A DNA stretch of 64,000 bases from an uncultured Actinomycetes bacterium (lineage in GTDB: Bacteria; Actinomycetota; UBA4738; HRBIN12): assembly GCA_963751665.1 (NCBI GenBank), contig CAVVVF010000001.1, positions 18,652 to 82,651 on the forward strand, in the 5' to 3' direction. Within the stretch, counting starts at the first letter, position 1. Every line of letters starts with the position of its first letter. The notes under the pieces were generated by a model that saw nothing but the letters and a program-made list of their open reading frames with translations, was not told where the DNA came from and did no database searches. Both the position numbers and the translations under genes were made by a program. Below, in pieces: positions 18,591 through 39,783 of this stretch.

Positions 18591-18670
18591 CATCGGCTGG
18601 TCTCTTTCTCTTCCGCGCAGAGCGCGCGGGACGACTATGTTTGGTCCGACTGACGGGTGGGAGCCGCGGC

Positions 18671-22248: not shown

Positions 22249-24387
22249 TCAGTAGTCCACCCCCTGGACGTAGGTCCGATCCGCGTCGTTCGCCTGTACG
22301 CTGGTCGGGCGCATCATTTCGTTGTCCTCGTGGTCGATGATGTGGCAGTGCCAGACGTAGCCGTGCCCGCCGTCGGGATCGAACGGGTATGACGCATCGG
22401 CGGGATCCGTGTTCGCCGGCAAGTTGGTCGGAGCCCAGCGAACCGCGATCCGCGTCACCTGACCCGGATACATGACTACCGTGTCCTTCCATCCCGCCTC
22501 GTTCGGCTCTGGAGGCTTGGCCGGACCCTTGAGGAACGGCACCACGTCCGGGTTGCCACCCAGCGCCCGAGCGTTCCCCGTGTAGTAGTCGAGGGGCGGC
22601 CCGAACCCGGGCCGGTAGACCCCTCCTTGGAAGGCGGCCGCGTACGTCGTGTCGTACTTCCCGACGTCGAAAGCCTGCCGGTTCATCAGCTGGAACTGCA
22701 CGAGGTGGAGGTGGATCGGGTGAGCGTCGGCGGTGAGGTTGACCACCTCCCAGACCTCGGTCTCGCCCTCTTGCGGCAGCTCCGAGTAGTAAGTGGTGAG
22801 CCCGTCGACCGTGATGGGTGTGAAGTCCGATCGATCGGTGCCCGGCAAGTCGGTGTTATTTACGAGTATCTCGAGCGGTCCACCTTCGTACGTGACGCCG
22901 CCGACCTCCGACGGCTCGCCGATGACTTCGTTCAGCGTCAGCTGACGCGTCTTCTGGACGGCCACGTCCGAGGCCAGCGTCCCCGCGGCCGGGTCGACCA
23001 GCCGCACCATCGGCGTTCGCAAAGGCGTGTGAGTGGCCGGGTCGTAGCTCGTGTCGGGACCGGTCGAGGGAACGACCCGGAACTGCATCACACGACCGGT
23101 GGTGCTCCCTTGGGGAGCCTCGCCCCCGGGGTACGGCGCCTTGGCGATGTTACGAAGGAGCAGCCTGGTCCCCGGTGCCAGTCCGGCGAAGTCGACGATC
23201 ACATCGGCGCGCTCGCCGGGCAGGATCAGCAATCGCTGGAGTGCACCCTTGGGCGCGTTCGGATCGATCTTCACGGGCCGGTCGAGGTAGCCGCCGTCGG
23301 TTCCGATCTGCCATATCGACGGCCCCATCGTCTTGGAAGCAGGGTTCGTCAAGAAGAGCTCGTACCCCCGGGCGTTGGAGCCATCGAGGAATAGGAATCG
23401 GTATCGCTTCGGCTCGACCTCCAGGTACGGCCAGACCTTGCCGTTCACCGCGATCGTGTCGCCGATGAACTCCGGGACCCAGAAAGGGTGCTCCGGGTTG
23501 GGTGTGAACGGTATCCCCGCCGGGAAGAACAGCTGGCCGTCCGTGTCGAACATGCGATCTTGGATGATCAGTGGTATCGGCAGCGGAAGGTTGGCGGGGG
23601 GCGGGTCATCCGGATCGGTGATCAGGTAGCCGCCCGCGAGGCCCGCGTAAACGCTCAGCCGCGTCACGCCCAGCGTGTGGTCGTGGAACCAGATTGGAGC
23701 CGCTTCCTGGACGTTCGGGTAGCGGTAGATGGCGTAGTTCTTGGGCGACGTGCCATCCTCGCTGTAGTAGGCGGGCCCAACGTAGCTCCCGTCGCTCGTG
23801 AACCAGGAGTCCGGTCCTCCGTCGATGCCGGCAGGCACCTCTCCGCCGTGAAGGTGTGGGGTCCCAGGGATGGGCCCTGCGTAGTGGAGAGCGCACGCGC
23901 CCGTCGGCGGGTTCCGCGGCTCAACGCTTTCCGCGCAGGCATTCGCCTCGCCGTTGAGCGGATCGGCCCAGTGCACGGTTTGGTCCGTCGAATCGACCCA
24001 CGCCTTGAGGTGCGTGTGGCTCGTGTCACCGAGATTGTTGACCCACTTGATCTCGGTCGGCGTGCCGCGCTCGGCGACGATCACCGGGCCCAGGTAGGTG
24101 GATCTGGCCGACTGGCCGGGCTGCAGGTACCCCCAGACCCAGGTCTTGGGGGATCCTTTCGGCAGCACCTGCGCCTTGAACTCGGTCATCCGCAACTCGA
24201 TCGGGCTCGCGCCCGCGAGGATGACGTCCAGGCTGGGCAGCGAGTCGACGAACTGTGGGATGGAACTGCCTGCGAGCGGAGTCTGCGCCGCAGCGACAAA
24301 CGACCTCGACCATCCGAGGCGGGGCAGAACCACCAAGCCGGCACCCGCGGCGAGGCCTCCGTTCAGGAACTGTCTCCGAGTAATCAT
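22249..24387 (-). CDS. Tat-secreted multicopper oxidase (bilirubin oxidase/CotA-like)
   Basis: Twin-arginine signal MITRRQFLNGGLAAGAGL; copper ligand motifs incl. C-terminal HCHIIDHEDNEMM; intact 712 aa. Confidence 0.8.
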   Translation of the reverse strand: MITRRQFLNGGLAAGAGLVVLPRLGWSRSFVAAAQTPLAGSSIPQFVDSLPSLDVILAGASPIELRMTEFKAQVLPKGSPKTWVWGYLQPGQSARSTYLGPVIVAERGTPTEIKWVNNLGDTSHTHLKAWVDSTDQTVHWADPLNGEANACAESVEPRNPPTGACALHYAGPIPGTPHLHGGEVPAGIDGGPDSWFTSDGSYVGPAYYSEDGTSPKNYAIYRYPNVQEAAPIWFHDHTLGVTRLSVYAGLAGGYLITDPDDPPPANLPLPIPLIIQDRMFDTDGQLFFPAGIPFTPNPEHPFWVPEFIGDTIAVNGKVWPYLEVEPKRYRFLFLDGSNARGYELFLTNPASKTMGPSIWQIGTDGGYLDRPVKIDPNAPKGALQRLLILPGERADVIVDFAGLAPGTRLLLRNIAKAPYPGGEAPQGSTTGRVMQFRVVPSTGPDTSYDPATHTPLRTPMVRLVDPAAGTLASDVAVQKTRQLTLNEVIGEPSEVGGVTYEGGPLEILVNNTDLPGTDRSDFTPITVDGLTTYYSELPQEGETEVWEVVNLTADAHPIHLHLVQFQLMNRQAFDVGKYDTTYAAAFQGGVYRPGFGPPLDYYTGNARALGGNPDVVPFLKGPAKPPEPNEAGWKDTVVMYPGQVTRIAVRWAPTNLPANTDPADASYPFDPDGGHGYVWHCHIIDHEDNEMMRPTSVQANDADRTYVQGVDY

Positions 24388-25369
24388 GGCGTCCTCCCTC
24401 CCGGCAACCCGAGCCTCGGGCCGGGCCGGAGTCGCCTTCGCGCTATCCCTATCTCCTGTTCACCTCGATTCATACCGGTGCACGGGTGGCTTATCAGGGC
24501 CAGAGGACCTGGAGTCGATGTGCCCATCGGGACCCGGCACGGGGCATCCCGGCCGCCCGCGCTGGCTTCGGCGCCTAGCTCAGCGGCTGGTTTCGCGCGA
24601 CGTCGGCGGGCGTTCTCTTGCGCCAGGGCAGCGCGCCACGACGTCGATGTCGATCGCGGAGCTGAGCAGAACTCTCACGAGGACAATCACACCGAGGGTG
24701 GTGGCACTCTCTAGCGTCGGCGCCACGCCTGTCGTGCGGACGATGTCGACGCCTGACGCCTGGAAACGCCGCGAAGCACCGACAGGACGTGGGTGCCGAA
24801 ACGAGGTCGCTCCCGCCGATCACCAGCACGAGGACGCCCTTGCGCTCTTCGCCATCGCTTTGGCCTTCAGATCGGATCTCTAGGGCCTGTGACGAACCCT
24901 TTATCATGCCCTCGATTCGATCCGCGTCTCGATGGATCCGGGGAAGCTCGGGCCAGCAAGACCCAGAAAGACCCAGCAATGACAAGGCGACCATCTCAAG
25001 GTGGAGTTTTCGGGGAACCCCGCCAACGCGGCGGCGGGCCTTAGCGTGGCTCCGGTGCTCGTCGGTATGACGGCTGCTGTGGGCGTCGCGATGCTGGTGC
25101 GAGCGGAGCGTCCCCAGGAGTGGCTGCATCTCCTGCCCGGGGTCGTCAAGTCGTCCACTCGCCCCGTTGGTTGGTCCGCAGACGAGAAGGGGTACCAACA
25201 TGCGCGGGCTGCTCGCGTCCTCGTGCCAACGGTGCCAGTCAAAGATTCGTGGACCCCGCAGGCCATGACAAGGCCGGGCAAGCACGCCGGCCACGACCTC
25301 CAACACCGTGGACAGGATCATGGGCAAGGTGCTCACTCCGGCGCGGCGGCAGATGAATACACTCCCGAC

Positions 25370-26578
25370 ATGGGCGGCGATGAGGGGCTGCGTGCCGTTG
25401 AGGCGGAGAACCGGCTGCTCCGCCGGGTGATCGAGACGATCACATCGAATCTCGACCTGGACACCTTGCTCGCCTCCTTGATCGACCTGGTTACCGAGGC
25501 GACCCGGGGCGACGCGTGCTTCCTATTCCTCTGGGACCCCGACGAGGAGCAGCTCGTGCTGCGCGCCGCCTCCCCCGAGTTCGAGGGAGCGGTGGGCTCT
25601 GTCCGCTTGCGTCTGGGCGAAGGCGTTTCCGGCTGGGTCGCCGAGAACCGGGAGGTCGTCGCGATCCCCGAGGACAAGTGGTCCGACCACCGGTACAAGT
25701 ACAACCCGGAGCTTGAGGGCGAACGGTTCACGTCGATGCTGTCGGTGCCGGTGGTCTCGAAGACGGGCGTGCTCCTCGGCGTCTTCAACGTCCACACGCA
25801 TGCCCGCCGGGACTTCAGCGAGCGGGACATCCGGTTCCTCCGGCTTACCGCCTCCCTTGTGGCTGAGTCCATCGAACACGCCCACCTGTTCGGAGCGCTC
25901 GCTGACAAAGAGTCGGCGCTCGAGGCGCTCGTGCGAACCACGATCGAGGCTCAGGAGGAGGAGCGTCGCCGCGTGGCCACCGAGATCCACGACGGCGTGA
26001 CGCAGCAGCTGGTTTCGATCTGGTACCGGCTCCAGGCGTGCGGGAGAACGCTCCGCGTGGATCCGGGCCGCGCCGAGCACGAGCTGGCGACGGCCCGTGA
26101 CCTGGTGGACGGTGCGCTCGAGGAGGCGCGATCCGCGATCTACGACCTGCGGCCCTCGCTCCTGGACGACTTGGGACTCTCCCCCAGCCTGCGAGCCCTC
26201 GCGCTCAGCCAGCTCGAAGGGGAGGCAAAGGTGGATCTGCAGATCGACGACGTGGTGCAGCTCCCGCCTCACCTTGAGGTGGCCCTGTATCGGATCGCCC
26301 AGGAGGCGTTGACCAACGTCCGCAAACACGCCCGGGCATCGCGCGTGAAGATTACCCTCCGAGAAGCCGACGGCTATCTTGAGCTCGAGATCGAGGACGA
26401 CGGCTGTGGGTTCGCGAGCCAGCCCTCGCAGTCGCAGCGCCCACCGACTTCGTTCGGTCTCACCGGTATGGCCGAGCGGGCGTCGCTGATCGGGGGCGAA
26501 CTCAGCCTGCGGAGCGCCCCCCGCCGCGGCACGGTCGTCACTGTTCGCGTCCCGACCCAGGCCGAGGCGCGCACGTGA
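25370..26578 (+). CDS. GAF-domain sensor histidine kinase (HisKA_3 + HATPase_c, NarL-partner type)
   Basis: GAF region then phospho-acceptor ATEIHDGVTQQLVS and ATPase motifs ALTNVRKHARA, DDGCGF, GLTGMAERA. Confidence 0.75.
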   Translation: MGGDEGLRAVEAENRLLRRVIETITSNLDLDTLLASLIDLVTEATRGDACFLFLWDPDEEQLVLRAASPEFEGAVGSVRLRLGEGVSGWVAENREVVAIPEDKWSDHRYKYNPELEGERFTSMLSVPVVSKTGVLLGVFNVHTHARRDFSERDIRFLRLTASLVAESIEHAHLFGALADKESALEALVRTTIEAQEEERRRVATEIHDGVTQQLVSIWYRLQACGRTLRVDPGRAEHELATARDLVDGALEEARSAIYDLRPSLLDDLGLSPSLRALALSQLEGEAKVDLQIDDVVQLPPHLEVALYRIAQEALTNVRKHARASRVKITLREADGYLELEIEDDGCGFASQPSQSQRPPTSFGLTGMAERASLIGGELSLRSAPRRGTVVTVRVPTQAEART

Positions 26579-27228
26579 ACGAGCCGATGCGCGTGGTGTT
26601 GGTGGATGACCACCGCGTGGTGCGCGAAGGCTTGAAGGCCATGCTCGAGGACGTCTCGGAGCTGGAAATCGTGGGGGAGGCGGAGGACGTCGCCGGTGCG
26701 CTCGTCGCCATCGAGAACGGCCGGCCCCACGTTGTACTTCTCGACGTTCGGCTCCAGCGATCGAGCGGCCTCGATGCGTGCCGAACCATCCGGGAACGCC
26801 ATCCCGAGGTGAACGTGGTCTTCCTCACTGTTTACGAGGACGAGCAGTACGTCTTCGAGGCCCTCCGCGCCGGCGGCCGCGGCTACATGTTGAAAAAGGC
26901 GCTCCCCGAGGACATCGTTCGGGTCCTGCAGGCGGTGCAGGGAGGCGATATCGTCATCGACCCGGCGCTCGGGGGCCAGATCGCCCTGCGAGCCGCGGCG
27001 CTCCGCGAGGGCAACGAATGGCCGGGCGCTCACCTCGGCCTCACGCAGCGCGAGGGGGAGGTCCTCGGCCATCTCGCCAAGGGACTGGACAACCGGGCAA
27101 TCGCCCACGCCCTGTACATCAGCGAGGGGACCGTGAAGTCCCACGTGAAGGGCATCTTTCGAAAGCTCGGCGCCAAGGACCGAGCTCAGGTCGTCTCGAT
27201 TGCGCTTCGCGAGGGCTTGGTTCGCTGA
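26575..27228 (+). CDS. response regulator, NarL/FixJ (LuxR-type HTH) family
   Basis: Receiver VVLVDDH...LLDVRL and C-terminal LTQREGEVLGHLAKGLDNRAIAHALYISEGTVKSHV; start overlaps kinase stop. Confidence 0.8.
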   Translation: MNEPMRVVLVDDHRVVREGLKAMLEDVSELEIVGEAEDVAGALVAIENGRPHVVLLDVRLQRSSGLDACRTIRERHPEVNVVFLTVYEDEQYVFEALRAGGRGYMLKKALPEDIVRVLQAVQGGDIVIDPALGGQIALRAAALREGNEWPGAHLGLTQREGEVLGHLAKGLDNRAIAHALYISEGTVKSHVKGIFRKLGAKDRAQVVSIALREGLVR

Positions 27229-27270: not shown

Positions 27271-28194
27271 CTAGCGCCCGATCGCGGGGGGCCGCGCGGC
27301 CAGCACCGCGCGCCTCGCGGCCGCGCCGGAGGCAAAGCGCAGGAACGCCTGGGCCGGAGCCGGCAAGAACCCGTCCTCCAGGTATTGCAGGAACCATCGT
27401 CGCCGAAGCGGCGTTCCCCGCGCCCGCAGGCGTGCCAGGGTCCCGGCTGCGATCTCCAAGGCCACCGCCTGAGCCGAGATGAGGGTCACGCCGAGCCCGA
27501 CTGCAGCTGCTTGTTTCACGGCTCCATTGCTGCCCAGGTTCAGCACACGCCGGGGCTCGATCTCGTGCCGGGCAAGGAACTCCTCCGTCGTAGAGCGCGT
27601 CCCAGAGCCGGGCTCGCGAAGGAGCCATGTGTCGTTGAGCCGTCGCGGGTCGATGCCCGAGCGACCGGCTAGCGGATGGTCTGGAGCCGACACGATGACC
27701 AGGTCGTTCGCGAGGAACCCCCGGCCGTCGACGGGCCCGTCTGCCGGCGGACGTCCGCCGACGGCCAGGTCCGCCTCCCGGGCCAGCAAGCGCTCCAGAA
27801 CCAAAGCCCGGTTCCCCACCTCCAGCACCGGGTCCACCTCCGGGTACTGTTCCTGAAAGGCCTTGAGGATGGGGGGGACAACGTACTCGCCGGCGGTCGT
27901 GACCGCGGCGAGCCGCAGTCGGCCCCGGCCAGGGTGCGCGGCCGCGACGGCGGAGTCCCTACCCTGTTCCAGCAACGCCAGGCACTGCGCCGCGAAGACG
28001 GCCAGGGCCTCGCCCGAAGGGGTCGGGCGCACGCCCTGCCGGTCCCGGACCACTAATCGGACGCCCACGTCGCGCTCGAGCGCGGCCAGGCTCGCCGAGA
28101 CCGCCGGCTGCGTCACATACAGCTCGGCTGCGGCGCCAGTCACCGAGCGGTGTCGCACCACCGCGAGGAATGCACGCAACTGAGCGAGGGTCAT
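27271..28194 (-). CDS. cbbR: LysR-family transcriptional regulator, divergent from RuBisCO genes (CbbR-like)
   Basis: [43 protein letters not shown]; position divergent to cbbL is the canonical CbbR arrangement. Confidence 0.7.
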
Positions 28195-28285: not shown

Positions 28286-29728
28286 ATGGCCCTCACCAAC
28301 CACACGAAGTTGTTCGACGCGGGAGTGAAGCTCTACAAGGACATGGGCTACTTCGAGCCCGGCTACGCGCCGAAGGAGACTGACGTCCTCGCGGCGTTCC
28401 GTGTCACGCCTCAGGAGGACGTCCCCCCCGAGGAGGCCGCTGCGGCCGTCGCCGCCGAGTCCTCGACCGGCACCTGGACCTCGGTCTGGACCGACCGCCT
28501 CACCGACCTGGAGCGCTACCGGGGCCGGTGCTACCGGATCGACCCGGTCCCGGGCGAGCCGAGCCAGTACATCGCCTACGTCGCCTATGACCTCGACCTG
28601 TTCGAGGAGGGTTCGATCGCGAACATGGCCTCATCGATCGTCGGGAACGTGTTCGGGTTCAAGGCCCTCCGGGCCCTCCGCCTGGAGGACCTTCGGGTAC
28701 CGATCGCCTACCTGAAGACGTTCCAGGGACCGCCCCACGGGATCCGGGTGGAGCGCGACAAACTGAATAAGTACGGCCGGCCCCTGCTTGGCTGCACGAT
28801 CAAGCCGAAGCTCGGGCTCTCCGCTCGCACCTATGGGCTCGCGGTATACGAATGCCTGCGCGGAGGTCTCGACTTCACGAAGGACGACGAGAACATCAAC
28901 TCCCAGCCGTTCATGCGCTGGCGGGACCGGTACGAGTTCGTCATGGAGGCGGTTCGCAAAGCCGAGGACGAGACCGGGGAGCGCAAGGGCCACTACCTGA
29001 ACGTCACCGCCCCAGGATTCGAAGAGATGATCGAGAGGGCCGAGCTCGCGAAGGAGCTCGGCGCGCCGATCATCATGGTCGATTACCTCACCGTCGGGTT
29101 CACCGCGTTCACGTCGCTGTCGCGGTGGTGCCGACGGAACGGGGTGCTGCTGCATTGCCACCGTGCCATGCATGCGGTAATCGACCGCCAGCGCAACCAC
29201 GGCATCCACTGGCGGGTGCTCGCGAAGTGGTGCAGGATGATCGGGGCAGATCACCTGCACAACGGGACCGTCGTCGGGAAGCTCGAGGGCGACCGGGCCG
29301 CGACGATGGCCATCAACGACCTCTTGCGGGAAGACTTCGTCGCGCGGGATCGGTCGCGCGGGATCTACTTCGACCAGCCCTGGGCGTCGTTGCCGGGCCT
29401 GTTCCCGGTGGCTTCGGGCGGGATCCACGTCGGTCACATGCCGGACCTCGTTGCCATCTTCGGCGACGACGCAGTGTTCCAGTTCGGGGGTGGGACGCTT
29501 GGCCACCCTTGGGGCAGCGCAGCCGGAGCCACCGCGAATCGGGTCGCGCTCGAGGCCGTGATCCAGGCCCGAAACGAAGGCCGGGAGATCGCTGCGGAGG
29601 GCGCGGACGTCCTACGGAAGGCGGCGGCGCACTCTCCCGAGCTGCGCGCGGCCCTCGAGACGTGGCAGGATGTCACCTTCGAGTTCGATGCGGTCGACGC
29701 CCTCGACCAAGCACAGGTGACGTCGTGA
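28286..29728 (+). CDS. cbbL: ribulose-1,5-bisphosphate carboxylase/oxygenase large subunit, form I
   Basis: Signature [42 protein letters not shown], followed by small subunit gene. Confidence 0.9.
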
Positions 29729-30042
29729 CGACGAGCACTCGCCGCCTGGAAACCTTCTCCTACCTGCCGCCTCTCACCGACGAGCAGATCACCGCGCAGA
29801 CCGGCTCGATCCTGGAGCGCGGGTTGATCCCCGCGATCGAGCACACGACCGACCCTGGACCGCGAAACACCTACTGGAGCCTGTGGAAGCTCCCGCTGTT
29901 CGACGCGCGAACGCCGGAGGCGGTTCTGGCCGAGGTCGAGGCCTGCGCGCGAGCCAACCCCGACGCATACGTCCGGCTGAGTGGCTACGACCCGAAGCGC
30001 CAGGGGCAGGTCGCGAGCTTCCTGCTCCGCCGCCCCAGTTGA
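29725..30042 (+). CDS. cbbS: RuBisCO small subunit
   Basis: [14 protein letters not shown]...[11 protein letters not shown]; GTG start overlaps cbbL stop. Confidence 0.85.
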
Positions 30043-30353
30043 GAGCCCACAGGGCGTTCTAGGTTCGGAACGCTGGATCGCTGGCGAGTCCGGGCCCAGG
30101 CTTTCCCCATCGTGCTCCCGCAGCTCGCTGGGAACCTTCCCTCCCTGGGGGGAGGCCGGTCTCCCCCTCCCTCCCCCCACTCCGGGTGATAACGGGCGCG
30201 GGGACCTCGCCTACGGTAATGATCGAGCAGCGGCTATGGATCTCCCTCGGGGAGGCTCGGGCTTCCGAACGAACCACCCGACACCCACGCGACGACGTGT
30301 GGGGACGATCCATGGCGACAGCATGCGGGACAGAGAGAAGAGGTGAGGCGGCC

Positions 30354-31268
30354 GTGAGACCGGTCATGCTGGCGATCGTCGGAGACAGCGCCGCCGGCAA
30401 GACGACCTTCACTCAAGGGGTCGTGGGGCTGCTCGGGGAGGGGCGCGTCGCCGTGATGTGTACCGACGACTATCACCGCTACGATCGTGTCCAGCGCCGC
30501 GAGCTGAACATCACACCCCTCGACCCTGACGGCAACTACATGGACATCATGGCCCAGCATCTTCGGTTGCTCGCCGCCGGGGAGCCGATCTTGAAGCCCG
30601 TCTACGACCACAGCCATGGCAACTTCGCGCCTCCCGAGTACGTGGTCGCCCGGCAGTTCATGGTCGTTGAAGGCCTTCTCGGCCTGACGACCAAGCCCAT
30701 GCGTGACTGCTACGCGGTGAGGGTCTACCTCGATCCGCCCGAGGACATGCGGCATCGGTGGAAGATCCAGCGCGACTGCGCGAAGCGCGGCTACACCCCA
30801 GATCAGGTGCTCGAGGAGCTGGAAAGGCGCGAGCCGGACTCGGCCGTCTTCATCCGGCCCCAGCGCGGGAGCGCGGACATCGTCGTGCGCTTCGAGCCTC
30901 CGAACGGCTTCGTCGACAGCGCGCGCCTGTCGATGCGCATGGTGTTGCGCCCGACGATCTCTCATCGAGATCTCACCGAACTCGCCGAGAAGGCCGTTTC
31001 GGACGGATGCGAGTCGATCCGGCTGGAGCTCGGGCGCGACGAGGGACACCCGGCCGACCTCCTCTACGTATCCGCGGACATCTCCGCCGAGGAGACCGCG
31101 CACCTGGAATCGCTGCTCTGGGAGCGCATGGATTTCGATCATCATCTCGAGCGCGAGGATATCGGCACCTTCGTCGAGGGCAACCGCCGCCGCCACTCGG
31201 ACTGCCTCGCTATCGCGCAGCTGTTCATCACCTACCACCTCCTGAACGCCGCGGCAGGCGGGCAGTGA
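30354..31268 (+). CDS. prk: phosphoribulokinase
   Basis: P-loop IVGDSAAGKTT and PRK-specific DDYHRYDR motif. Confidence 0.8.
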   Translation: MRPVMLAIVGDSAAGKTTFTQGVVGLLGEGRVAVMCTDDYHRYDRVQRRELNITPLDPDGNYMDIMAQHLRLLAAGEPILKPVYDHSHGNFAPPEYVVARQFMVVEGLLGLTTKPMRDCYAVRVYLDPPEDMRHRWKIQRDCAKRGYTPDQVLEELERREPDSAVFIRPQRGSADIVVRFEPPNGFVDSARLSMRMVLRPTISHRDLTELAEKAVSDGCESIRLELGRDEGHPADLLYVSADISAEETAHLESLLWERMDFDHHLEREDIGTFVEGNRRRHSDCLAIAQLFITYHLLNAAAGGQ

Positions 31269-31293: not shown

Positions 31294-32688
31294 GTGACGA
31301 CCCCGGCCGGGTCGATCCTCCTCGCCGGCGGGGCGATGTCGAGCCTCGACGACTACATCGCCGCGGGCGGAGGGAGGGCGCTCGTCGCGGCGCTCGAACG
31401 CTCGCCGCAGGCGGTGATCGATGAGGTGAAACGCTCGGGCCTTCGGGGCCGCGGGGGAGGGGGGTTCGCTACAGGCGTGAAGTGGGAGTCCGTCCGGTCC
31501 GACCCATGCCCCACCAAGTTCGTGATCTGCAACGCGGCCGAAGGGGAGCCCGGCACGTTCAAGGACCGCTGGCTCCTGCGGCACAACCCCTACCAGGTGC
31601 TGGAAGGCATCGCCATCGCCACCCGCGCGGTGGGGGCCGACCGCGCGTTCATCGCGGTCAAGCGCGCGTTCGAGCGGGAGATCCGCACGCTTCGTCGAGC
31701 CATCGCCGAGATGAGAGGGAGCGACATGCTCGGCCCCGTTCCCATCGAGATCATCCTTGGGCCCGACGAGTACCTCTTCGGAGAAGAGAAGGCGCTCCTC
31801 GAGGTGATCGAGGGGAACGACCCCCTCCCGCGGATCCTCCCTCCCTACCAGGTTGGGCTGTTCGCCAGACGGGGATCTAGCAACCCCACAGCCGTCAACA
31901 ACGTCGAGACCCTTGCCAACGTGCCTCACATCATCACCAAGGGCTCGGAGTGGTTCCGGTCGTTCGGAACCGAGACCTCGCCTGGGACCGGGGTGTTCAC
32001 CCTGTGCGGGGACGTGCGCCGGCCCGGCATCTATGAGCTCCCCCTCGGCCTGCCCCTACGGACCCTCCTGTACGACATCGGCGGAGGCTCGCCCGAGGGC
32101 AGAGCGCTAAAGGCCGTCTTCCCCGGTGCATCCAACGCAGTCCTCTCGGCCGAGCAGTTCGACACCCCGATGGACTTCGACTCGATGAGGGCGGTGGGGT
32201 CCGGGCTGGGATCGGCGGGATTCGTGGCGTACGACGAGTCGGCGTGCATCGTGAGGGCCACCCTCGCGTACTCTCGGTTCCTCTACGTCGAGTCGTGCGC
32301 GCAGTGCCCGGCCTGCAAGCAGGGCTCCGAGGAGATCACCGACTGCCTGGAGAGGATGGAGCGAGGCGAGGGCTCGGAGTCAGACGTAGAGTCCGCACTC
32401 GCCAGGTGCCTCGCGGTGACGGGTGGCCGGCGGTGCGCCCTTCCCACGGGTGAGTCGCTTCTCGTCCAGAGCGCCATCCACGCGTTCGAGGTCGAGTTCC
32501 GGGAGCACCTCGGCCGGCCCTGCCCCAGGCCGCGCGACCTTCCTCTCCCCAAGCTCGTGGACTTCGACGAGGAGGGCGGGCGGTTCGTTTACGACGACCG
32601 GTATCGGCTGAAGCGGCCGGACTGGACGTTCGAATCCGGGCGGAAAGGTGCTCGGTCGATGCCGGCGCGAGAGGAAGCACCAGCGTGA
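31294..32688 (+). CDS. NuoF-like NAD(H)-binding FMN/Fe-S flavoprotein (Complex I 51 kDa family), stand-alone
   Basis: GLRGRGGGGFATGVKW FMN/NADH motif, C-terminal 4Fe-4S cysteine cluster ESCAQCPACKQG. Confidence 0.75.
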   Translation: MTTPAGSILLAGGAMSSLDDYIAAGGGRALVAALERSPQAVIDEVKRSGLRGRGGGGFATGVKWESVRSDPCPTKFVICNAAEGEPGTFKDRWLLRHNPYQVLEGIAIATRAVGADRAFIAVKRAFEREIRTLRRAIAEMRGSDMLGPVPIEIILGPDEYLFGEEKALLEVIEGNDPLPRILPPYQVGLFARRGSSNPTAVNNVETLANVPHIITKGSEWFRSFGTETSPGTGVFTLCGDVRRPGIYELPLGLPLRTLLYDIGGGSPEGRALKAVFPGASNAVLSAEQFDTPMDFDSMRAVGSGLGSAGFVAYDESACIVRATLAYSRFLYVESCAQCPACKQGSEEITDCLERMERGEGSESDVESALARCLAVTGGRRCALPTGESLLVQSAIHAFEVEFREHLGRPCPRPRDLPLPKLVDFDEEGGRFVYDDRYRLKRPDWTFESGRKGARSMPAREEAPA

Positions 32689-33356
32689 AGGTGGGAGACC
32701 TCGCCACAGCCCCGGTCGTTTCCGTCCGCCCGGAGCAGTCCGTGCGCCAAGCCGCGCGAGTGATGATGGAACACGGAACCGGCTCGACGGTCGTCCTCGA
32801 TGGGGGAGCGCTGGTCGGGATCCTGACCGAGCGAGATCTCCTGCGGGCCGCTGCGACGGGAACGGATCTGGACGGGACGAGGGTCGAGCAGTTCATGTCC
32901 CCGCACGTGAAGACGATCGGTCCCGACTGGGAGGTCTACGAGGCAACGGCGGAGATGGCGGCCCAGCACATCCGCCACCTGGTCGTATGTGAGAACGCGC
33001 AGGTGGTCGGCGTCTTGTCGGTACGGGACGTGCTCCTGGCGGGCCAGCGAGTGGAGCTCACGGCCGGGAGCTGGGCCGTGCTGCGGGACCCGTTGACCTT
33101 GACCATCAGGGAACGCCGACGCCTCCAGCGGTGCCTACTCATGCTCCGCGGGACCGACCCCGCCGAGTTCGAGCTCGCGGGCTTGATCGGCCTCCTGGTG
33201 GGGAGCTGGTCGTTTGAGGTGGCCCTTCCGGCAGAGTCCGAGAGCCTACGGTCGATACCCGCCGCAGACTATGAGTTGCTCAGGGCGGCGGTGTTGGCCG
33301 AGCTCCCCGACCTTCAGCGCTCCGTGCACCCCTCACCCGGGTGGCGGCGGAGGTAA
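32685..33356 (+). CDS. CBS domain pair protein
   Basis: Two CBS-like units (…VVLDGGALVGILTERDLL… / …HLVVCENAQVVGVLSVRDVL…); overlaps upstream stop. Confidence 0.65.
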   Translation: MKVGDLATAPVVSVRPEQSVRQAARVMMEHGTGSTVVLDGGALVGILTERDLLRAAATGTDLDGTRVEQFMSPHVKTIGPDWEVYEATAEMAAQHIRHLVVCENAQVVGVLSVRDVLLAGQRVELTAGSWAVLRDPLTLTIRERRRLQRCLLMLRGTDPAEFELAGLIGLLVGSWSFEVALPAESESLRSIPAADYELLRAAVLAELPDLQRSVHPSPGWRRR

Positions 33357-33394: not shown

Positions 33395-34105
33395 GTGAGA
33401 GAGCCCGCGATCGTCGCGTCGGTCCTTGGCGCCGATTACGCCAACCTGGGGCGGGAGGTGGCGGAGCTCGAGGCCGCCGGGGTCGACCGCATCCAGTGGG
33501 ACGTGATGGACGGGCGCTTCGTCCCGAACCTGACGTTCGGTTCCGACGTCGTGGCCGCTTGCCGCCGCCTCTCGGAGCTTCCGTTCGAGGCCCACCTCAT
33601 GGTTGAGGAGCCCGATCGATGGCTCGAACCCTTCGCCGCCGCCGGCTGTGACACGTTGATCGTCCACCAGGAGGCGTGCCGGCACCTGCACCGGACGCTC
33701 ACGCAGATTCGGGCGCTAGACGTGCTCGCGGGCGTCGCGCTCAACCCGGCGACCCCGATCGAGTGCGTGCGTCACGTGCTCGACCAGGTCGACGTCTTGC
33801 TCGTTATGACCGTCAACCCCGGCTTCGGAGGGCAGTCGTACATCGCGGCGATGGAGGAAAAGGTGGCCGAGGCCCGGCACCTGATCGACCGGTCGCGGTT
33901 CGCTACGACGATCGAGGTCGACGGGGGGATCTCCGCTGCGACCGTTGCGGGGGCGTGGAAGGCCGGGGCGGAGCTCCTCGTAGCCGGATCGGCCATCCTC
34001 GGCCATGCCGAGGGGAAGCAGGCCGCGGTGGCCGAGCTCCGGCGATGCCTGGAGCTCTCACAGAGACCGGTCCCAACCCGCGGACCGTTGGAGTCCCAAC
34101 GATGA
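33395..34105 (+). CDS. rpe: ribulose-phosphate 3-epimerase
   Basis: [35 protein letters not shown] motifs; start codon choice (GTG 33389/33395) uncertain. Confidence 0.8.
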
Positions 34106-36163
34106 CCCTCTCTGGCGCCGCCCGCCCAACGGCTCACGCCGGCGACCTCGATGACCTCTGCATCAACACGATCCGTGCCACAGCCGTGGACGCGATCGAG
34201 AGGGCGAACTCCGGTCACCCAGGGACTCCCATGGGGGCCGCCCCCATGGCGTATGTGTTGTGGACCCGCTTCCTGCGGCACAACCCTCGAAACCCTCGTT
34301 GGTCTGACCGCGACCGGTTCGTGCTTTCGGCCGGGCACGCCTCCATGCTCTTGTACGCGCTGCTGCACCTGACCGGCTACGACGTTGCGCTCGAGGAACT
34401 CCAGCGGTTCCGCCAGTGGGGATCGAGGACCCCGGGCCATCCCGAGTACGGACTCACACCGGGAGTGGAGACGACGACCGGGCCCCTCGGCCAGGGGTTC
34501 GGGAACGCCGTGGGGATGACGATCGGCGAGCGCATGCTCGCCGATCGCTTCAACCGGCCCGGCCTCGACATAGTCGACCATTACACCTACGCCATCTGCT
34601 CCGACGGGGACATGATGGAGGGGGTGGCCTCGGAAGCCGCATCGTTGGCCGGCCACCTGGGCCTTGGCAAGCTGATCTGCCTCTACGACGACAACGACAT
34701 CTCGATCGACGGCCACACCGACCTATCGTTCAGCGAGGACGTGGGGAGCAGGTTCGATGCTTACCGCTGGCACGTCCGGCACGTGTTAGACGGCAACGAC
34801 CTTGCAGTCCTGGAGGCGGCGCTCGCCGAAGCGCGGGAGGAAACTGAACGTCCCTCCCTGATCGTGGTGAGGACCCACATCGGATTTGGTGCTCCCACGA
34901 AGCAGGACACGGCGGAGGCGCATGGGGCTCCCCTCGGAGCCGACGAGGTGAGGGCGTGGAAGGAGCGGATCGGCTGGCCCGACGGCGAATTCTTCATCCC
35001 CGAGATGGCCCAGTGCCGGTTCCGCGAGGCCCTGGAGCGCGGCGCCGAGCTGGAGCGGGGCTGGCGTCGGCTGTTCGAGCGCTGGGCGGCGGCGGAGCCC
35101 GACCTCGCTGCGGAGTGGGACCGAGTGATGGCAGGCCGCTTGCCTCTCGGTTGGGAGCAAGGGTTTCCGGATTTCCGAGATCAGACCGCGTTGTCCACCC
35201 GGAAGGCTTCCGGGAAGGTCCTGGGGGCCTTGGCCACGAGACTCCCCGAGCTGGTCGGGGGCTCGGCCGACCTGACCGAGTCGACCAACGTCGCGTTGCC
35301 GGGCGAGACGTCGTTCTGCCGTGAGCGCACCGGTCGCTACATCCACTTCGGGGTGCGAGAGCACGGCATGGGAGCCATCCTGAACGGACTGTCGCTCCAT
35401 GGTGGGCTTCGACCGTTCGGGGGGACCTTCCTGATCTTCTCGGACTACATGCGCCCGTCGATGCGCCTGGCCGCACTGATGGAGCAGCCGGTCGTCTACG
35501 TCCTCACCCATGACTCGATCGGTCTGGGGGAGGACGGCCCCACCCACGAACCTGTGGAGCACCTCCCGTCGCTGCGGGCCATGCCCGGGCTCGTCGTGAT
35601 TCGGCCGGCAGATGCGGCCGAGACCGCCGAGGCCTGGAAGGTGGCACTCGAGCGTCGGGACGGTCCGACCGCGCTGATCCTCTCGAGGCAGGACCTTCCC
35701 GTGCTCGATCGAGATCGGCTCGCTCCCGCCGGTCTCCTGGCTCGCGGAGCGTACGTGCTAGCCGACGCTCACGGCCAGCCGGAGGACCTCATCCTATTAG
35801 CCTCCGGGTCGGAGGTGCCCGTCGCCCTGGCCACGGCAGACCTCTTGCAGTCCGAACACGGGCTGTCCGTGCGGGTGGTGAGTATGCCCTCGTGGGAGCT
35901 GTTCGAGCAACAGGACGAAGCGTACCGTGGGAAGGTCCTCCCCCCCGACATCCCCGTCCGGTCTGGCTGTGGAGGCCGCAACTCCCCTCGGATGGACCCG
36001 GTGGGTGGGCAACGCGGGAGCGGTGGTGGGGGTCGATCGCTTCGGGGCCTCCGCCCCCGGTTCGGTCGTCCTGGAGCAGTACGGCTTCACCGCAGAGAAC
36101 GTGGCGGCCCGCGCCTTGGAGCTCCTGCTCACGAGCGGGTTGTCCTCGACCTTGGGGAGGTGA
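34102..36163 (+). CDS. tkt: transketolase (apparent frameshift near 35950 before last about 70 aa)
   Basis: SGHPGTPMG thiamine-PP motif, full TK domains; C-terminal [16 protein letters not shown]...[16 protein letters not shown] only in a second frame. Confidence 0.75.
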
Positions 36164-36165
36164 GG

Positions 36166-37440
36166 GTGGTCCCTTCCATCCGTCCCTACCGACCGGACGA
36201 CCTCGGCCGGATCGTCGAACTGTGGTCCGGGGCGGGCGAGCCTCCGGGCTTGGTTCACCAGCTCCACGAGGTCCTGAGCCTCGTCAACCACGAGAGCGCC
36301 ATCGTCCTCGTGGTTGAGAGGGAGGGCGAGATCGTCGGGGCGGGCTTCGGTACCGTGTCTGGTGCTCTCGGTTGGATCCATGATCTCGCCGTTACCGAGC
36401 GGCCCGAGGCCGATGTCGCCCTTGACCGCCTCATCGACCAGATGGAATCTGGGATGGCCGATCGGGGCGCGCACGTGATCGATGCCCTCGTCGGAATCGA
36501 AGGACGCCTGCACCGAGGCCTTCGGCAGCGGGGCTACGAGATGGTCCGCGACGCCGTCTGCGTTCGGCGGGATATCTCCAGCACCGTCTCTGCCCCCTCG
36601 GTCCTGGCGGAGCTCGGAGGCGTCACGATCGACCCCGGCCTGTGGGATCGCCTCAAAGGGATGGAAGGGCCCAAGGACATCATCGAACGGCGGGTCATCC
36701 TTCCCCTTTCCGAGCCGGAACTCGCCGAGCGTCACAGCGTCGAACGACCGAAGGCGATCGTCCTGTTCGGGCCACCTGGGACCGGCAAGACGACGTTCGC
36801 CAAGGGGATCGCGTCCCGGCTCGGGTGGCCCTTCGTAGAGATCGAGCCGAGCGGGCTCGTCGACGAGGGTATCGAGCACGAGGGGAGGCTCCTCGCCCGA
36901 GCCTTCGAGCGGCTCCTGGAGCTGCCCTCGGCGGTGGTGTTCGTCGACGAGGTGGAGGACCTCGCCTCGATCCGTCACAACGAGCGCAGGGTGAGCCCCA
37001 GCGTGACGAACGAGTTCCTGAAGCAGATCCCCAGATTCCGGACGGTCCCGCATCACCTATTGGTGTGCGCTACGAACTGGGTCGGAACGCTGGATCCAGC
37101 GTTCCTCCGCCCGGGCCGGTTCGACTACGTCTTGCCCGTCGGGCCGCCGGACGCGGTCGCCCGGGCCGCCATCTGGCGTCGTTACGTAGCGGAGATCAGC
37201 GATCAGGACATTGACGTCGACGTTCTGGTCGAGGCCACCAGGTACTTCACGCCTGCAGACATCGAGTTCGCTGCCCGCAAGGCGGCCCAATCGGCGTTCG
37301 AGCGGGAGGTCTTCCGAGGGTCCGGGGCCAAGGCCGGCACCGATGACTTCCTGAATGCGATCGGGCAGATGAAGCCCACCCTCTCGCAGGAGATGATCGA
37401 GGTCTTCGAGGGGGACGTCGAGCGGTTCGCCCGGTACTGA
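36166..37440 (+). CDS. GNAT acetyltransferase domain fused to AAA+ ATPase (FtsH/CDC48-like core), within cbb operon
   Basis: N-terminal GNAT fold ([19 protein letters not shown]...WIHDLAVTE), then Walker [10 protein letters not shown], Walker [10 protein letters not shown], second region of homology [19 protein letters not shown]. Confidence 0.65.
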
Positions 37441-37500: not shown

Positions 37501-38523
37501 ATGGGCGTGGAGGAACTGGAGCGAACGGCCCGGGCCCTGGTTGCCCCGGGCAAGGGCATCCTGGCAGCGGACGAGAGCAGCGGCACGATCAAGAAGCGGT
37601 TCGACTCGATCGGCGTGGAGTCCACCGAGGAGAACCGCCGCGCCTACCGAGAGATGTTGTTCACCACGCCGGGGATGGAGGAGTTCATCAGCGGGGTGAT
37701 CATGTTCGACGAGACGCTCCGCCAATCGACGAGCGGCGGGATCGCCTTCGCCAATGTCCTTGAGGCCGTCGGTGTCATCCCGGGCATCAAGGTCGATACA
37801 GGAGCGAGGCCTCTGGCCGGGTTCCCGGGTGAGACGGTGACCGAGGGACTCGATGGCTTGCGGGAACGCCTGGCCGAGTACCGCGAGATGGGCGCAGGGT
37901 TCACGAAGTGGCGAGCCGTCATGACCATCGGAGACGGCATCCCGACCCAGTCCTGCGTCGACGCGAACGCCGAAGCCCTCGCGCGGTTCGCCGCCCTGTC
38001 CCAGGAGGCGGGGCTGGTCCCGATCGTGGAGCCGGAAACCTTGATGGACGGCGACCACACGATCGACCGTCACTACGACGCCACACGCCGGACACTCGAA
38101 GCACTGTTCGACCGGCTGTTCGCGCACCGGGTCGAACTGGCCGGGACCCTGCTCAAGACCAACATGGTCCTGTCGGGGAAATCCGCGCCTGAACAGGCGG
38201 GGGTCGAAGAGGTTGCGGGGTGGACGCTCCGCCTCCTCCGTGGATGCGTCCCACCGGCCATTCCCGGGATCGTCTTCCTCTCCGGAGGGCAGACCGACGA
38301 GGCCTCCACCGCGCACCTCTCCGAGATGAACAGGATCGGTGGAGTGCCGTGGGAGCTGTCGTTCTCGTATGGGCGTGCGCTGCAGGCGCCGGCCCTAAAG
38401 GCCTGGGGCGGAAAGGCGGAGAACCTGGAGACAGGACAGCGCGCCCTCTACCAGCGGGCGCGGCTCAACGGCGTGGCGAGGAGCGGGAACTACAGGCCGG
38501 ACATGGAACACGCTCCAGCCTGA
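37501..38523 (+). CDS. fba: fructose-bisphosphate aldolase, class I
   Basis: GKGILAADESSGTIKKRF and Schiff-base lysine context typical of class I FBA. Confidence 0.85.
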   Translation: MGVEELERTARALVAPGKGILAADESSGTIKKRFDSIGVESTEENRRAYREMLFTTPGMEEFISGVIMFDETLRQSTSGGIAFANVLEAVGVIPGIKVDTGARPLAGFPGETVTEGLDGLRERLAEYREMGAGFTKWRAVMTIGDGIPTQSCVDANAEALARFAALSQEAGLVPIVEPETLMDGDHTIDRHYDATRRTLEALFDRLFAHRVELAGTLLKTNMVLSGKSAPEQAGVEEVAGWTLRLLRGCVPPAIPGIVFLSGGQTDEASTAHLSEMNRIGGVPWELSFSYGRALQAPALKAWGGKAENLETGQRALYQRARLNGVARSGNYRPDMEHAPA

Positions 38524-38593: not shown

Positions 38594-39783
38594 TCATGCC
38601 GCCCTCATGTACTCGTGGACGAGCCCACCGAGGAGATCTCGCCGTTCGATGTCGGGCACGCCGTCGGCCTCTTCGACGGGAGCGAGACTCTCGGGTACCT
38701 GCAGCTCCAGTCCTCGATGCGGGCGTCGCCGGTTGTAGTGCTGCGCATAGATCCGAATGATGCGATCGAGATGCCGGGGGCCGAGGATCAGCAGCCAGTC
38801 CAGGCACTCTGCGCGAAGCGTCTCTATCCAGCGCTCGGCGAAGGCATTGGCGTTCGGCGCCCTGATCGGCGTGCAGGTCACCCGGATCCCTTCTGATACG
38901 AAGACATCATCGAAGGAGCGGGAGAACTTGGCGTCTCGGTCGCGGATGAGAAAGCCGATCTGCGTGCCCTCCTCGGCGGGCCCATCGCAAGGTTCCTCGC
39001 CTGCTGGGTGACGAAGGAAGAGTCCGGGTTGGTCGTTGAGACCGTGACGTGCACGCGCCGTGTCCCGATCTCGATGAAGAACAGGACATAGAGCGTCTTG
39101 AGAAACGCCGTCTCGACCGTGAAGAAATCGCAAGCCTGGACGCCCGATGCCTGAGCCTTCAGGAACTGGCGCCACGTCGGGCCCCGGCGGGGGGCCGGAC
39201 CGACGCCGGAGCGGCGAAGAAGCATCGCGACGCTCGTCGCGGACACGCGGATCCCCAGCTTTCGCAGCTCGCCTTTGATCCTCATGCATCCCCACCGGGG
39301 GTTCTCTCTTGCCATCTGAAGGATCAGCATGCAGACCTCTGGATCGATCGCGGGGCGCCCGGGCGGGCGATGCGGCCTCGTCCACTTTGCCGCGACGAGT
39401 GACCGGTGCCAGCGCAGAAGCGTCTCGGGACGAACGAGGAACGCACCCCAGCGCTCTTTGGGAAGGATCCGGCTTGCTGCAGCGAGCAGCGCACGGTCCC
39501 CGTGCCGGTAGACCGGGCGCTTGACCTGTCGGCGTAGGACCTGGAGTTGGTGGCGAAGGACAAAGATCTCAATTGCGGCATCGTCGGAGCGATGTTTCGG
39601 CGCGACAAGGGTGAGGAGCCGACGAAGCATCATATAGAGGAGTGAAGCAAGCATGGCGGCGATACTGTCATGCCGGGCGATGCTCAACCACCGACCACTC
39701 CGGCGGGGCTGCCTGATCGAGTTCTTGTACCCCACGGGTTCGTAACGGAACCGACATCGGCCTCCAGGAGGCAGCTGCGCCAC
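38594..39783 (-). mobile_element. rve/DDE-type IS transposase (IS481-like), single frameshift near 38980
   Basis: N-terminal HTH and start of integrase core (CDFFTVETAFLKTLYVLFFIEIGTRRVHV) in one frame; rest of core (IRDRDAKF...HYNRRRPHRGL) in another. Confidence 0.6.

Follow-up and report, generated by a model that had tools for sequence, protein, structure and literature searches.

A NuoF-like flavoprotein and a CBS-pair protein are encoded as a conserved pair in Calvin-cycle gene clusters of Actinomycetota

The DNA considered here is a stretch of 64,000 nucleotides (nt), which we refer to as the window, from an uncultured Actinomycetes bacterium (GTDB lineage Bacteria; Actinomycetota; UBA4738; HRBIN12; NCBI GenBank assembly GCA_963751665.1, contig CAVVVF010000001.1, positions 18,652 to 82,651 of the forward strand). 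The window contains a Calvin-Benson-Bassham (CBB) gene cluster with the order cbbL-cbbS-prk-[NuoF-like]-[CBS]-rpe-tkt-AAA-fba and with cbbR in divergent orientation (Table 1). Our subject is the pair of genes between prk, which encodes phosphoribulokinase (PRK), and rpe. One encodes a flavoprotein that resembles NuoF, the NADH-binding subunit of complex I, and the other encodes a protein with a pair of CBS domains. A first-pass annotation, made from the letters of the sequence, had placed a NuoF-like gene and an overlapping CBS gene inside the CBB operon; the coordinates it gave are exact, and the assignment is borne out by Pfam, by NCBIfam, and by the sequence GTGA, in which the TGA stop codon of the NuoF-like gene and the GTG start codon of the CBS gene share 4 nt. 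The base composition of the window is 64-74% G+C. We told real frames apart by the GC content of codon positions; values at third positions of 0.85-0.87 back both the NuoF-like and the CBS frame. The gap between the end of prk and the start of the NuoF-like gene is 25 nt, and a search of the stretch from prk to rpe for terminator-like or promoter-like sites found none.

A scan of metagenomes with an alignment of the CBS protein returned 33 loci (designated by L and a number), to which look-ups of relatives added more. We counted a locus as informative when DNA was present upstream of the CBS gene (n=35). In all 35 of these loci a NuoF-like gene lies upstream of the CBS gene on the same strand, with a stop-start overlap of exactly 4 nt in 33 and of 14 nt, as the genes are called, in the other 2. 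The pairing holds down to 56% protein identity, and the full-length CBS family, C-terminal domain included, is found in bins named Nitriliruptorales, Mycobacterium, Actinophytocola, Planosporangium, and Mycobacteriales. The surroundings of the pair fall into about 11 gene orders, and a CBB gene adjoins the pair wherever the flank is at least about 2 kb. Specifically, the pair is found after prk, after glpX, before cbbLS, before fba, before rpe or tkt, or as prk-NuoF-like-CBS alone, with prk directly upstream in most related loci. The operon in L085 and L090 is the same as that of the window; L086 reads prk-NuoF-like-CBS-rpe-tkt, followed by cbbR and cbbLS, and has a NiFe hydrogenase close by; L091 reads kinase-regulator-prk-NuoF-like-CBS-tkt; and L087 and L088 have prk-NuoF-like-CBS alone, beside urease genes. 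The pair lies directly before cbbLS in L095, L102, L118, L126, and L127, and beside a kinase and regulator in L112, L114, and L116. In L106-L108 it follows glpX and precedes fba, and a second prk and a short CBS gene are divergent. The pair is a regular member of the CBB cluster in these Actinomycetota, and many soil Actinobacteria have it. The earlier view that neither gene is a standard cbb operon member is therefore right for textbook operons and wrong for these clusters, and the suggestion that the pair is wired into carbon fixation is strongly supported by the CBB genes beside it in 35/35 loci. Separately, we note that in L107 (1627-3009, minus strand) the second prk (51% identical) is followed by a separate 128-residue gene encoding a CBS pair only and then by a GAF kinase, an independent association of prk with CBS.

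Table 1 Features of the CBB cluster and of the two proteins (nucleotide positions are those of the window)
Feature	Residues	Position	Strand	Basis
GAF-HisKA_3 sensor kinase		ORF 25001-26578, true start probably near 25370	+	Pfam-type domain match; related loci
NarL-type response regulator		26575-27228	+	Domain match; related loci
cbbR, LysR-type regulator, divergent		27271-28194	-	Pfam HTH_1 + LysR_substrate; kept in related loci
cbbL, form I RuBisCO large subunit		28286-29728	+	Pfam; NF003252, 767 bits
cbbS, RuBisCO small subunit		about 29725-30042	+	Pfam; translation
prk, phosphoribulokinase		ORF 30186-31268, probable start 30312	+	NF005655, 367 bits vs cut-off 236
NuoF-like flavoprotein, GTG start	464 in all	31294-32688	+	Pfam, NCBIfam
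FMN-binding domain	~45-212
SLBB domain	234-295
[4Fe-4S] domain (N3-type)	323-405
Family-specific C-terminal extension	406-464
CBS-pair protein, GTG start	223 in all	32685-33356	+	Pfam CBS x2
CBS pair (Bateman module)	1-119	32685-33041	+	Pfam CBS x2 (E 2e-25)
Conserved alpha/beta C-terminal domain	120-218	33042-33338	+	Library search, hhalign
Tail VHPSPGWRRR		33324-33353	+	Columns V214-R223 invariant or near-invariant
rpe, ribulose-phosphate 3-epimerase		to 34105; ORF opens 33341, likely GTG start 33365 or 33395	+	TIGR01163, 246 bits vs cut-off 212
tkt, transketolase, frameshifted near 35942-35961		34102 to about 36160	+	Pfam; tblastn
GNAT-like N-terminal domain + Cdc48/PAN-type AAA+ ATPase		36166-37440	+	Domain match; conserved cluster member
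fba, class I fructose-bisphosphate aldolase		37501-38523	+	Pfam Glycolytic, E 1.5e-130
ORF, open reading frame; FMN, flavin mononucleotide.

The NuoF-like protein matches the Pfam models Complex1_51K (E 1e-42), SLBB, and NADH_4Fe-4S (E 2.6e-15), and shares this three-domain core with NuoF/Nqo1 (TIGR01959), HoxF, HydB, NfnB, and FdsB, to which it is 38-45% identical. The cofactor motifs are retained (the GRGGxGF loop that binds FMN, GEE, and NNVET), and the four cysteines of the cluster (C335, C338, C341, and C381) are invariant in an alignment of relatives. The protein nevertheless differs from NuoF in several respects. It scores below the curated equivalog cut-off of the NuoF family model TIGR01959 (nuoF_fam; 355.8 bits against 558.65) and of other NuoF models (NF010120, 287 against 389; NF008436, 249 against 749), and it belongs to a family that reads CN[AG]A[ED]GEPG in place of the canonical NADE[SG]EPG (117/124 best relatives) and GPDEY in place of GAGAY. 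The family also has a 5-residue insertion after the PPY loop that is absent from canonical NuoF, and a conserved C-terminal extension of about 55 residues (…KLVDFDE..GRFVYDERYRLKRPDWTY). The best sequence matches in the PDB are NfnB, HydB, HoxF, and NuoF (297-258 bits), all of them longer or accompanied by partner subunits. These relatives, of 584-630 residues, align over the core only, and the N-terminal NuoE-like [2Fe-2S] and/or C-terminal 2x[4Fe-4S] ferredoxin domains of HoxF, HydB, and NfnB are missing from the window protein. In the FMN loop, residues 52-61 of the window protein (31447-31476) read GRGGGGFATG, where 113/124 best relatives read GRGGAGFPT; the change from P to A is rare (2/124).

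Consistent with the earlier description of the gene as lacking NuoE and NuoG partners, tblastn queries with NuoE, NuoG, NuoB, and NuoD had no match in the 64-kb window, and Pfam scans of 20 further large window ORFs contained no hydrogenase or diaphorase partner subunit. The same absence is seen in related genomes. Relatives of about 450 residues at 66-89% identity number in the thousands in the protein database and come mostly from Actinomycetota metagenome bins. We also compared the NuoF-like alignment with the contigs of one genome per species; the best 80 loci listed, in which the top identity is 52%, are mostly true NuoF. Among these matches 66 are true NuoF-type genes (about 37-45% identity), 64 of which adjoin nuoE and mostly nuoG as well, the remaining two (L038 and L072) lying with nuoG. 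Neither nuoE nor nuoG accompanies the 14 listed loci in which the match reaches the C-terminal extension (L001-L013 and L015), nor L055, in which it likewise reaches the C-terminus, nor any of the closer relatives of the NuoF-like protein. A neighbour-joining tree sets the stand-alone NuoF-like proteins cleanly apart from true NuoF. Taken together, these alignments and neighbourhoods assign the protein to a distinct, widespread clade of stand-alone proteins, most of them without linkage to cbb genes. The earlier label of a complex-I-type module is thus apt for the domain core, although the protein is not a stray complex I subunit. Unpaired NuoF-like genes occur, for example, in L081 and L089, and comparison of the neighbours of unpaired genes found no recurring gene. 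Apparent fusions of 960-974 residues in L006 and L010 were rejected as ORF run-on, the extra 500 residues having no Pfam domain.

Those NuoF-like proteins that are paired with a CBS protein can be recognized by sequence. All of them carry the signature PxY[QR][VI]GLFA (PPYQVGLFA in the window), in place of which the nearest unpaired type carries PP[WF]MEGLFR; among the 124 best matches, 26 have the former and 90 the latter. The genomic context was predicted correctly from the PxY[QR][VI]GLFA signature in 7/7 look-ups. Only five positions strictly separate the paired type from the nearest unpaired one. Among them are D377G, which neighbours the cluster ligand C381, and two (E187V and R191A) in a loop whose counterpart in NuoF, by alignment, is the NAD(H)-adenine loop.

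The CBS protein consists of a CBS pair followed by a conserved C-terminal domain (C-domain) and a short tail. Both GhhT/SxxD ribose-binding motifs are intact (G45-D51, with T48, and G109-D115, with S112), the motifs GILTERD and GVLSVRD are invariant in 60 sequences, and the pair is predicted from these motifs to bind adenine nucleotides. In an AlphaFold2 model (confidence, pLDDT, 87) the CBS pair (>90) is followed by an alpha/beta domain, which spans residues 120-215, and by an end predicted to be disordered (<50, residues 218-223). This end, with the invariant sequence VHPxPGWRR(R), is a candidate docking peptide. A Foldseek search with the full model matched CBS pairs only, including AMP-binding ones and CBS-CP12. 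For the C-domain of about 100 residues there was no Pfam match, and the domain modelled alone (pLDDT 82) had no fold match in the PDB by Foldseek (best E 2.2). It contains no conserved Cys and no Pfam match to CP12.

When the C-domain was compared with 1.8 billion representative proteins, stand-alone homologues of 110-150 residues emerged (phmmer E down to 2e-8), and an hhalign comparison of the CBS-family alignment with that of the stand-alone homologues gave a probability of 99.4% (E 9e-22, 99 columns). One such homologue lies after a Phage_tube_2 gene (L128). Homologues are also encoded on eleven IMG/VR contigs; these were retrieved by means of a degenerate DNA pattern, a scan of viral sequences with a protein query having returned no match. 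In L134 the homologous gene sits between a tail protein gene and the tape-measure gene, which is the classical position of the tail assembly chaperone in phage genomes. The stand-alone homologues matched no Pfam or PHROG model and nothing in the INPHARED phage genomes. Judged by the profile alignment, the C-domain is a homologue of small proteins that phages encode at the position of the tail assembly chaperone. In the window it is fused to a CBS pair and encoded in the cbb operon, with no phage genes near the CBS gene, and it appears to be a phage chaperone-like domain that has been domesticated in a metabolic operon. The likeness to the chaperones of siphophage tails (gpG-like) is one of genome position together with the 99 aligned columns, and the phage family has no solved structure. 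The earlier label of an adenine-nucleotide-sensing CBS protein agrees with the predicted function of the CBS pair, but the protein is not a plain CBS pair, as it has a second conserved domain of apparent phage-chaperone ancestry.

The gene most often found beside the pair encodes a PRK that, in the window, matches PDB entries 9qkn/9qko over its full length (E about 1e-92 to 7e-92). The title of these entries is 'cyanobacteria specific phosphoribulokinase'; on the strength of the match, PRKs of the 9qko type are not confined to cyanobacteria. The P-loop of the window PRK, GDSAAGKTT, is without the Cys of thioredoxin-regulated PRKs, and for this reason we set aside regulation of the thioredoxin type.

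The arrangement of the pair is reminiscent of several known systems, none of which it reproduces. In CBS-CP12, too, a CBS pair is joined to a protein-binding domain at the C-terminus and the gene accompanies those of the Calvin cycle; the protein reduces the activity of PRK in a way that depends on AMP (PMC6142219). In place of the Cys pairs and CP12 motif (AWD_VEEL core) of that protein, however, the window protein has a domain with a phage-protein homologue. The logic is also similar to that of the cyanobacterial GAPDH-CP12-PRK complex, in which CP12 bridges PRK to an NAD(P)H-binding protein by means of a terminal peptide, but the parts are unrelated: the putative NAD(H)-binding partner here is a flavo-iron-sulfur protein and the host is a non-photosynthetic actinobacterium. 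The class I PRKs of proteobacteria are activated by NADH and inhibited by AMP, with the effectors binding to the kinase itself. The two signals would be the same here, as is the pathway step most often encoded beside the pair, whereas the PRK, being of the 9qko type, does not belong to class I, and the putative sites for NAD(H) and for adenylates are divided between two proteins. A further likeness is to the alternative input modules of complex-I-like enzymes without NuoEFG, such as FpoF, or the docking of ferredoxin on cyanobacterial NDH-1 (PMC4453560). As with FpoF, a flavo-iron-sulfur protein is encoded apart from NuoE and NuoG, and two loci have the pair beside a nuo operon without E, F, and G; such adjacency is rare, however (2 of about 37 loci), and the neighbours that stay constant encode CBB enzymes, not nuo products. 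Neither protein matches any of the canonical cbb gene families (cbbLSXYZ, FPTAGK, and R). We found no description of the pair in the literature searched, which dealt with form IE RuBisCO and its gene clusters, autotrophy in soil, the phylogeny of complex I, nuoF or CBS in cbb clusters, unpaired NuoF, and 9qko-type PRK. The parts belong to known domain families, together with one unnamed domain; their combination, strict pairing, and CBB linkage appear to be undescribed.

These findings suggest that the pair is probably an accessory part of dark CO2 fixation that has not been described previously, and that its role is most likely regulatory. As to how it acts, the explanation that we tentatively favour, while granting it somewhat less than an even chance, is that the two proteins constitute an obligate module coupling CBB enzymes to the state of NAD(H) and of the adenylates, with PRK as the likeliest target. 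The NuoF-like protein, a presumably soluble FMN/[4Fe-4S] protein that descends from the complex I subunit which binds NADH, would read the redox state of NAD(H). The CBS protein would serve as an adaptor, its CBS pair binding adenine nucleotides and its C-domain, related to phage proteins at the position of protein-binding chaperones, and invariant basic tail making the protein-protein contacts with the target. Together, the two proteins would tie the activity of CBB enzymes to reductant and to energy charge. The fixed translational coupling of the genes suggests a stoichiometric complex, and the constancy of the CBB neighbourhood points to a CBB-specific job. We regard PRK as the most likely target because it is the most frequent neighbour and because it is without the thioredoxin-type Cys in the P-loop; RuBisCO and the adjacent GAF kinase are alternatives. 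The second prk of L107, with its own CBS-pair gene behind it, also speaks for this explanation. Complex formation, the identities of the ligands, a regulatory rather than catalytic role, and the target are what we infer from this gene organization and these protein families.

A more specific version of this idea, which we consider rather doubtful, is a switch resembling CP12 but assembled from unrelated parts, with a NuoF-derived, NAD(H)-reading anchor and an AMP/ATP-gated CBS protein whose domain of phage-chaperone origin and invariant WRRR tail tether PRK and silence (or activate) it. If such a switch existed, it would be a post-translational gate, responsive to redox state and energy, on the Calvin cycle of non-photosynthetic, trace-gas-oxidising Actinobacteria. 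Several observations weigh against our regulatory explanation. PRK is not always adjacent to the pair, the nearest gene in L126, L127, L116, and L106-L108 being cbbLS, fba, or glpX, so that gene order does not fix the target. FMN/[4Fe-4S] proteins of the NuoF superfamily are normally enzymes, not sensors, and the unpaired relatives, which are far more numerous, need no CBS partner for their work, in keeping with a core activity that is enzymatic. The motifs of the NAD(H) pocket differ from canonical NuoF throughout the family, making the nucleotide itself uncertain, and the Cys pair and CP12 motif are absent.

The main rival explanation is that the NuoF-like protein is instead an NAD(P)H:acceptor oxidoreductase that supplies or drains CBB reductant, with the CBS protein as its nucleotide-gated regulatory subunit. 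In one form of this explanation the protein provides a complex-I-like enzyme that lacks NuoEFG with an input or output module for NADH, docking directly in the manner of FpoF, so that reverse electron flow yields NADH for CO2 fixation. We judge a catalytic role of this kind to be less likely than not. All of the FMN and N3-cluster motifs are kept, the closest solved relatives (NfnB, HydB, HoxF, and NuoF) are catalytic subunits, and the existence of unpaired relatives suggests an activity autonomous to the family. In addition, a nuo operon without E, F, and G adjoins the pair in L126, as do nuoA-B-C in L120, and there are documented cases in which a partial complex I operon has recruited a different input module (PMC4453560). 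The nuo adjacency, however, is confined to 2 of about 37 loci, which come from related lineages (NuoB 86% identical), and neither the window nor any other locus has a nuo gene within 10 kb. No route is known by which N3 could be connected to the clusters of NuoI when NuoG is missing, and no acceptor gene (ferredoxin, hydrogenase, NuoE, or NuoG) co-occurs with the pair. Moreover, the CBB cycle needs NAD(P)H in bulk, amounts that a small soluble protein with one cluster and no donor could not generate. We note that in L126 (1-3725; an Actinophytocola bin) the genes adjoining the pair form a divergent nuoA-B-C-H-I-J-K operon, nuoD/E/F/G not being in the stretch covered, and that in L120 (460-1936) nuoA-B-C follow the CBS gene on the same strand.

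The phage ancestry of the C-domain raises the further possibility that the pair acts in assembly or repair, with the C-domain chaperoning RuBisCO or PRK, the CBS pair gating this by ATP/AMP, and the flavoprotein supplying the reducing power by which oxidised or inhibited enzyme is reactivated. PduS, a stand-alone Complex1_51K flavoprotein that regenerates a cofactor, offers an analogy. Besides drawing on the phage homologues of the C-domain, which are encoded at the chaperone position, this explanation is in keeping with the position of the pair directly upstream of cbbLS in L095, L102, L118, L126, and L127 and with the AAA+ ATPase as a constant neighbour. It seems improbable to us nonetheless, as a chaperone role of the phage family is suggested by gene position alone, neither protein resembles a known RuBisCO chaperone or activase, and the commonest immediate neighbour is PRK, not RuBisCO. 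We attach little probability to the idea that the pair modulates the GAF-HisKA_3 kinase and NarL-type regulator (or CbbR), making cbb transcription track NADH and adenylates. The kinase and regulator are almost as constant in the clusters as the pair itself, and they are directly beside the CBS gene in L112, L114, and L116 and present in L107, L126, and L127; in most loci, however, the pair lies among enzyme genes, with cbbR and cbbLS between it and the kinase, and L087 and L088 have the pair and prk but lack a kinase within 9 kb. Mere passenger status of the two genes, with no functional relation to the surrounding operon, was named at the outset as an outcome that would overturn a link to carbon fixation. 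The wider family is indeed mostly without CBB neighbours (90/124 closest relatives by signature; L001-L013, L081, and L089), but the comparative data effectively refute this view, which we hold to be very improbable indeed: the pairing is 35/35, the 4-nt overlap is fixed, and the CBB neighbourhood persists through about 11 rearrangements and down to 56% identity.

The lineages concerned are of some importance, since RuBisCO form IE, which is carried by Actinomycetota, is the dominant form among the soil form I sequences of a recent survey (1820/3876; bioRxiv 10.64898/2026.05.21.726994) and has been tied to trace-gas-driven 'atmospheric chemosynthesis' (PMC9561532). The pair, with its putative NAD(H)- and adenylate-binding proteins, is a concrete candidate for control of the Calvin cycle after transcription in these bacteria. 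From the comparison there also emerges a large family of NuoF-like flavoproteins that stand alone and would act outside complex I.

Other members of the cluster recur as well. The fusion of a GNAT-like domain to a Cdc48/PAN-type AAA+ ATPase is found in the CBB clusters of the window, L085 (14860-16140), L090, L092, and L093. The window AAA+ has AAA_lid_3, which sets it apart from the CbbX type; an AAA that resembles CbbX (AAA_lid_6) is present in L116 and L126. The GNAT-AAA+ protein could be an unrecognised RuBisCO activase. A HisKA_3 kinase with one GAF domain and a NarL-type regulator occur, besides CbbR, in nearly all related CBB loci (the window, L085, L086, L090, L091, L103, L107, L112, L114, L116, L126, and L127). 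Genes for a NiFe-hydrogenase small subunit and for HypC, HycI, and CooC-like maturation proteins are only a few kb away from the CBB cluster in L086 (1-3546) and L127 (13857-16407), which fits H2-driven CO2 fixation in these lineages.

Downstream of the pair, tblastn with the tkt queries of L085 and L086 places the final ~66 residues of transketolase (35942-36160) in a frame other than that of the first 620, reflecting either a frameshift or an assembly indel. An ORF of 1254 codons (33676-37440) was rejected as a giant protein, as it arises where a single frame reads through the overlap with rpe, tkt with its frameshift, and the AAA gene. Directly after fba, at the end of the CBB cluster, are two overlapping transposase/integrase-like ORFs of insertion sequence type (38594-39783, minus strand); the cluster edges in L085 and L090 also hold rve-type transposase genes, which hints that the CBB cluster is mobile. 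On the other side of the cluster, a multicopper oxidase gene (712 residues, 22249-24387, minus strand) lies between cyclase/HEAT genes and the two-component system. The former (15048-21532) comprise an adenylate/guanylate cyclase-AAA-TPR gene and a HEAT and cyclic-nucleotide (cNMP)-binding gene. A HEAT/cNMP protein encoded beside the unpaired NuoF-like gene of L081 (1217-6912) shares about 40% identity with that of the window, which may reflect a remnant of synteny or some connection with cNMP signalling.

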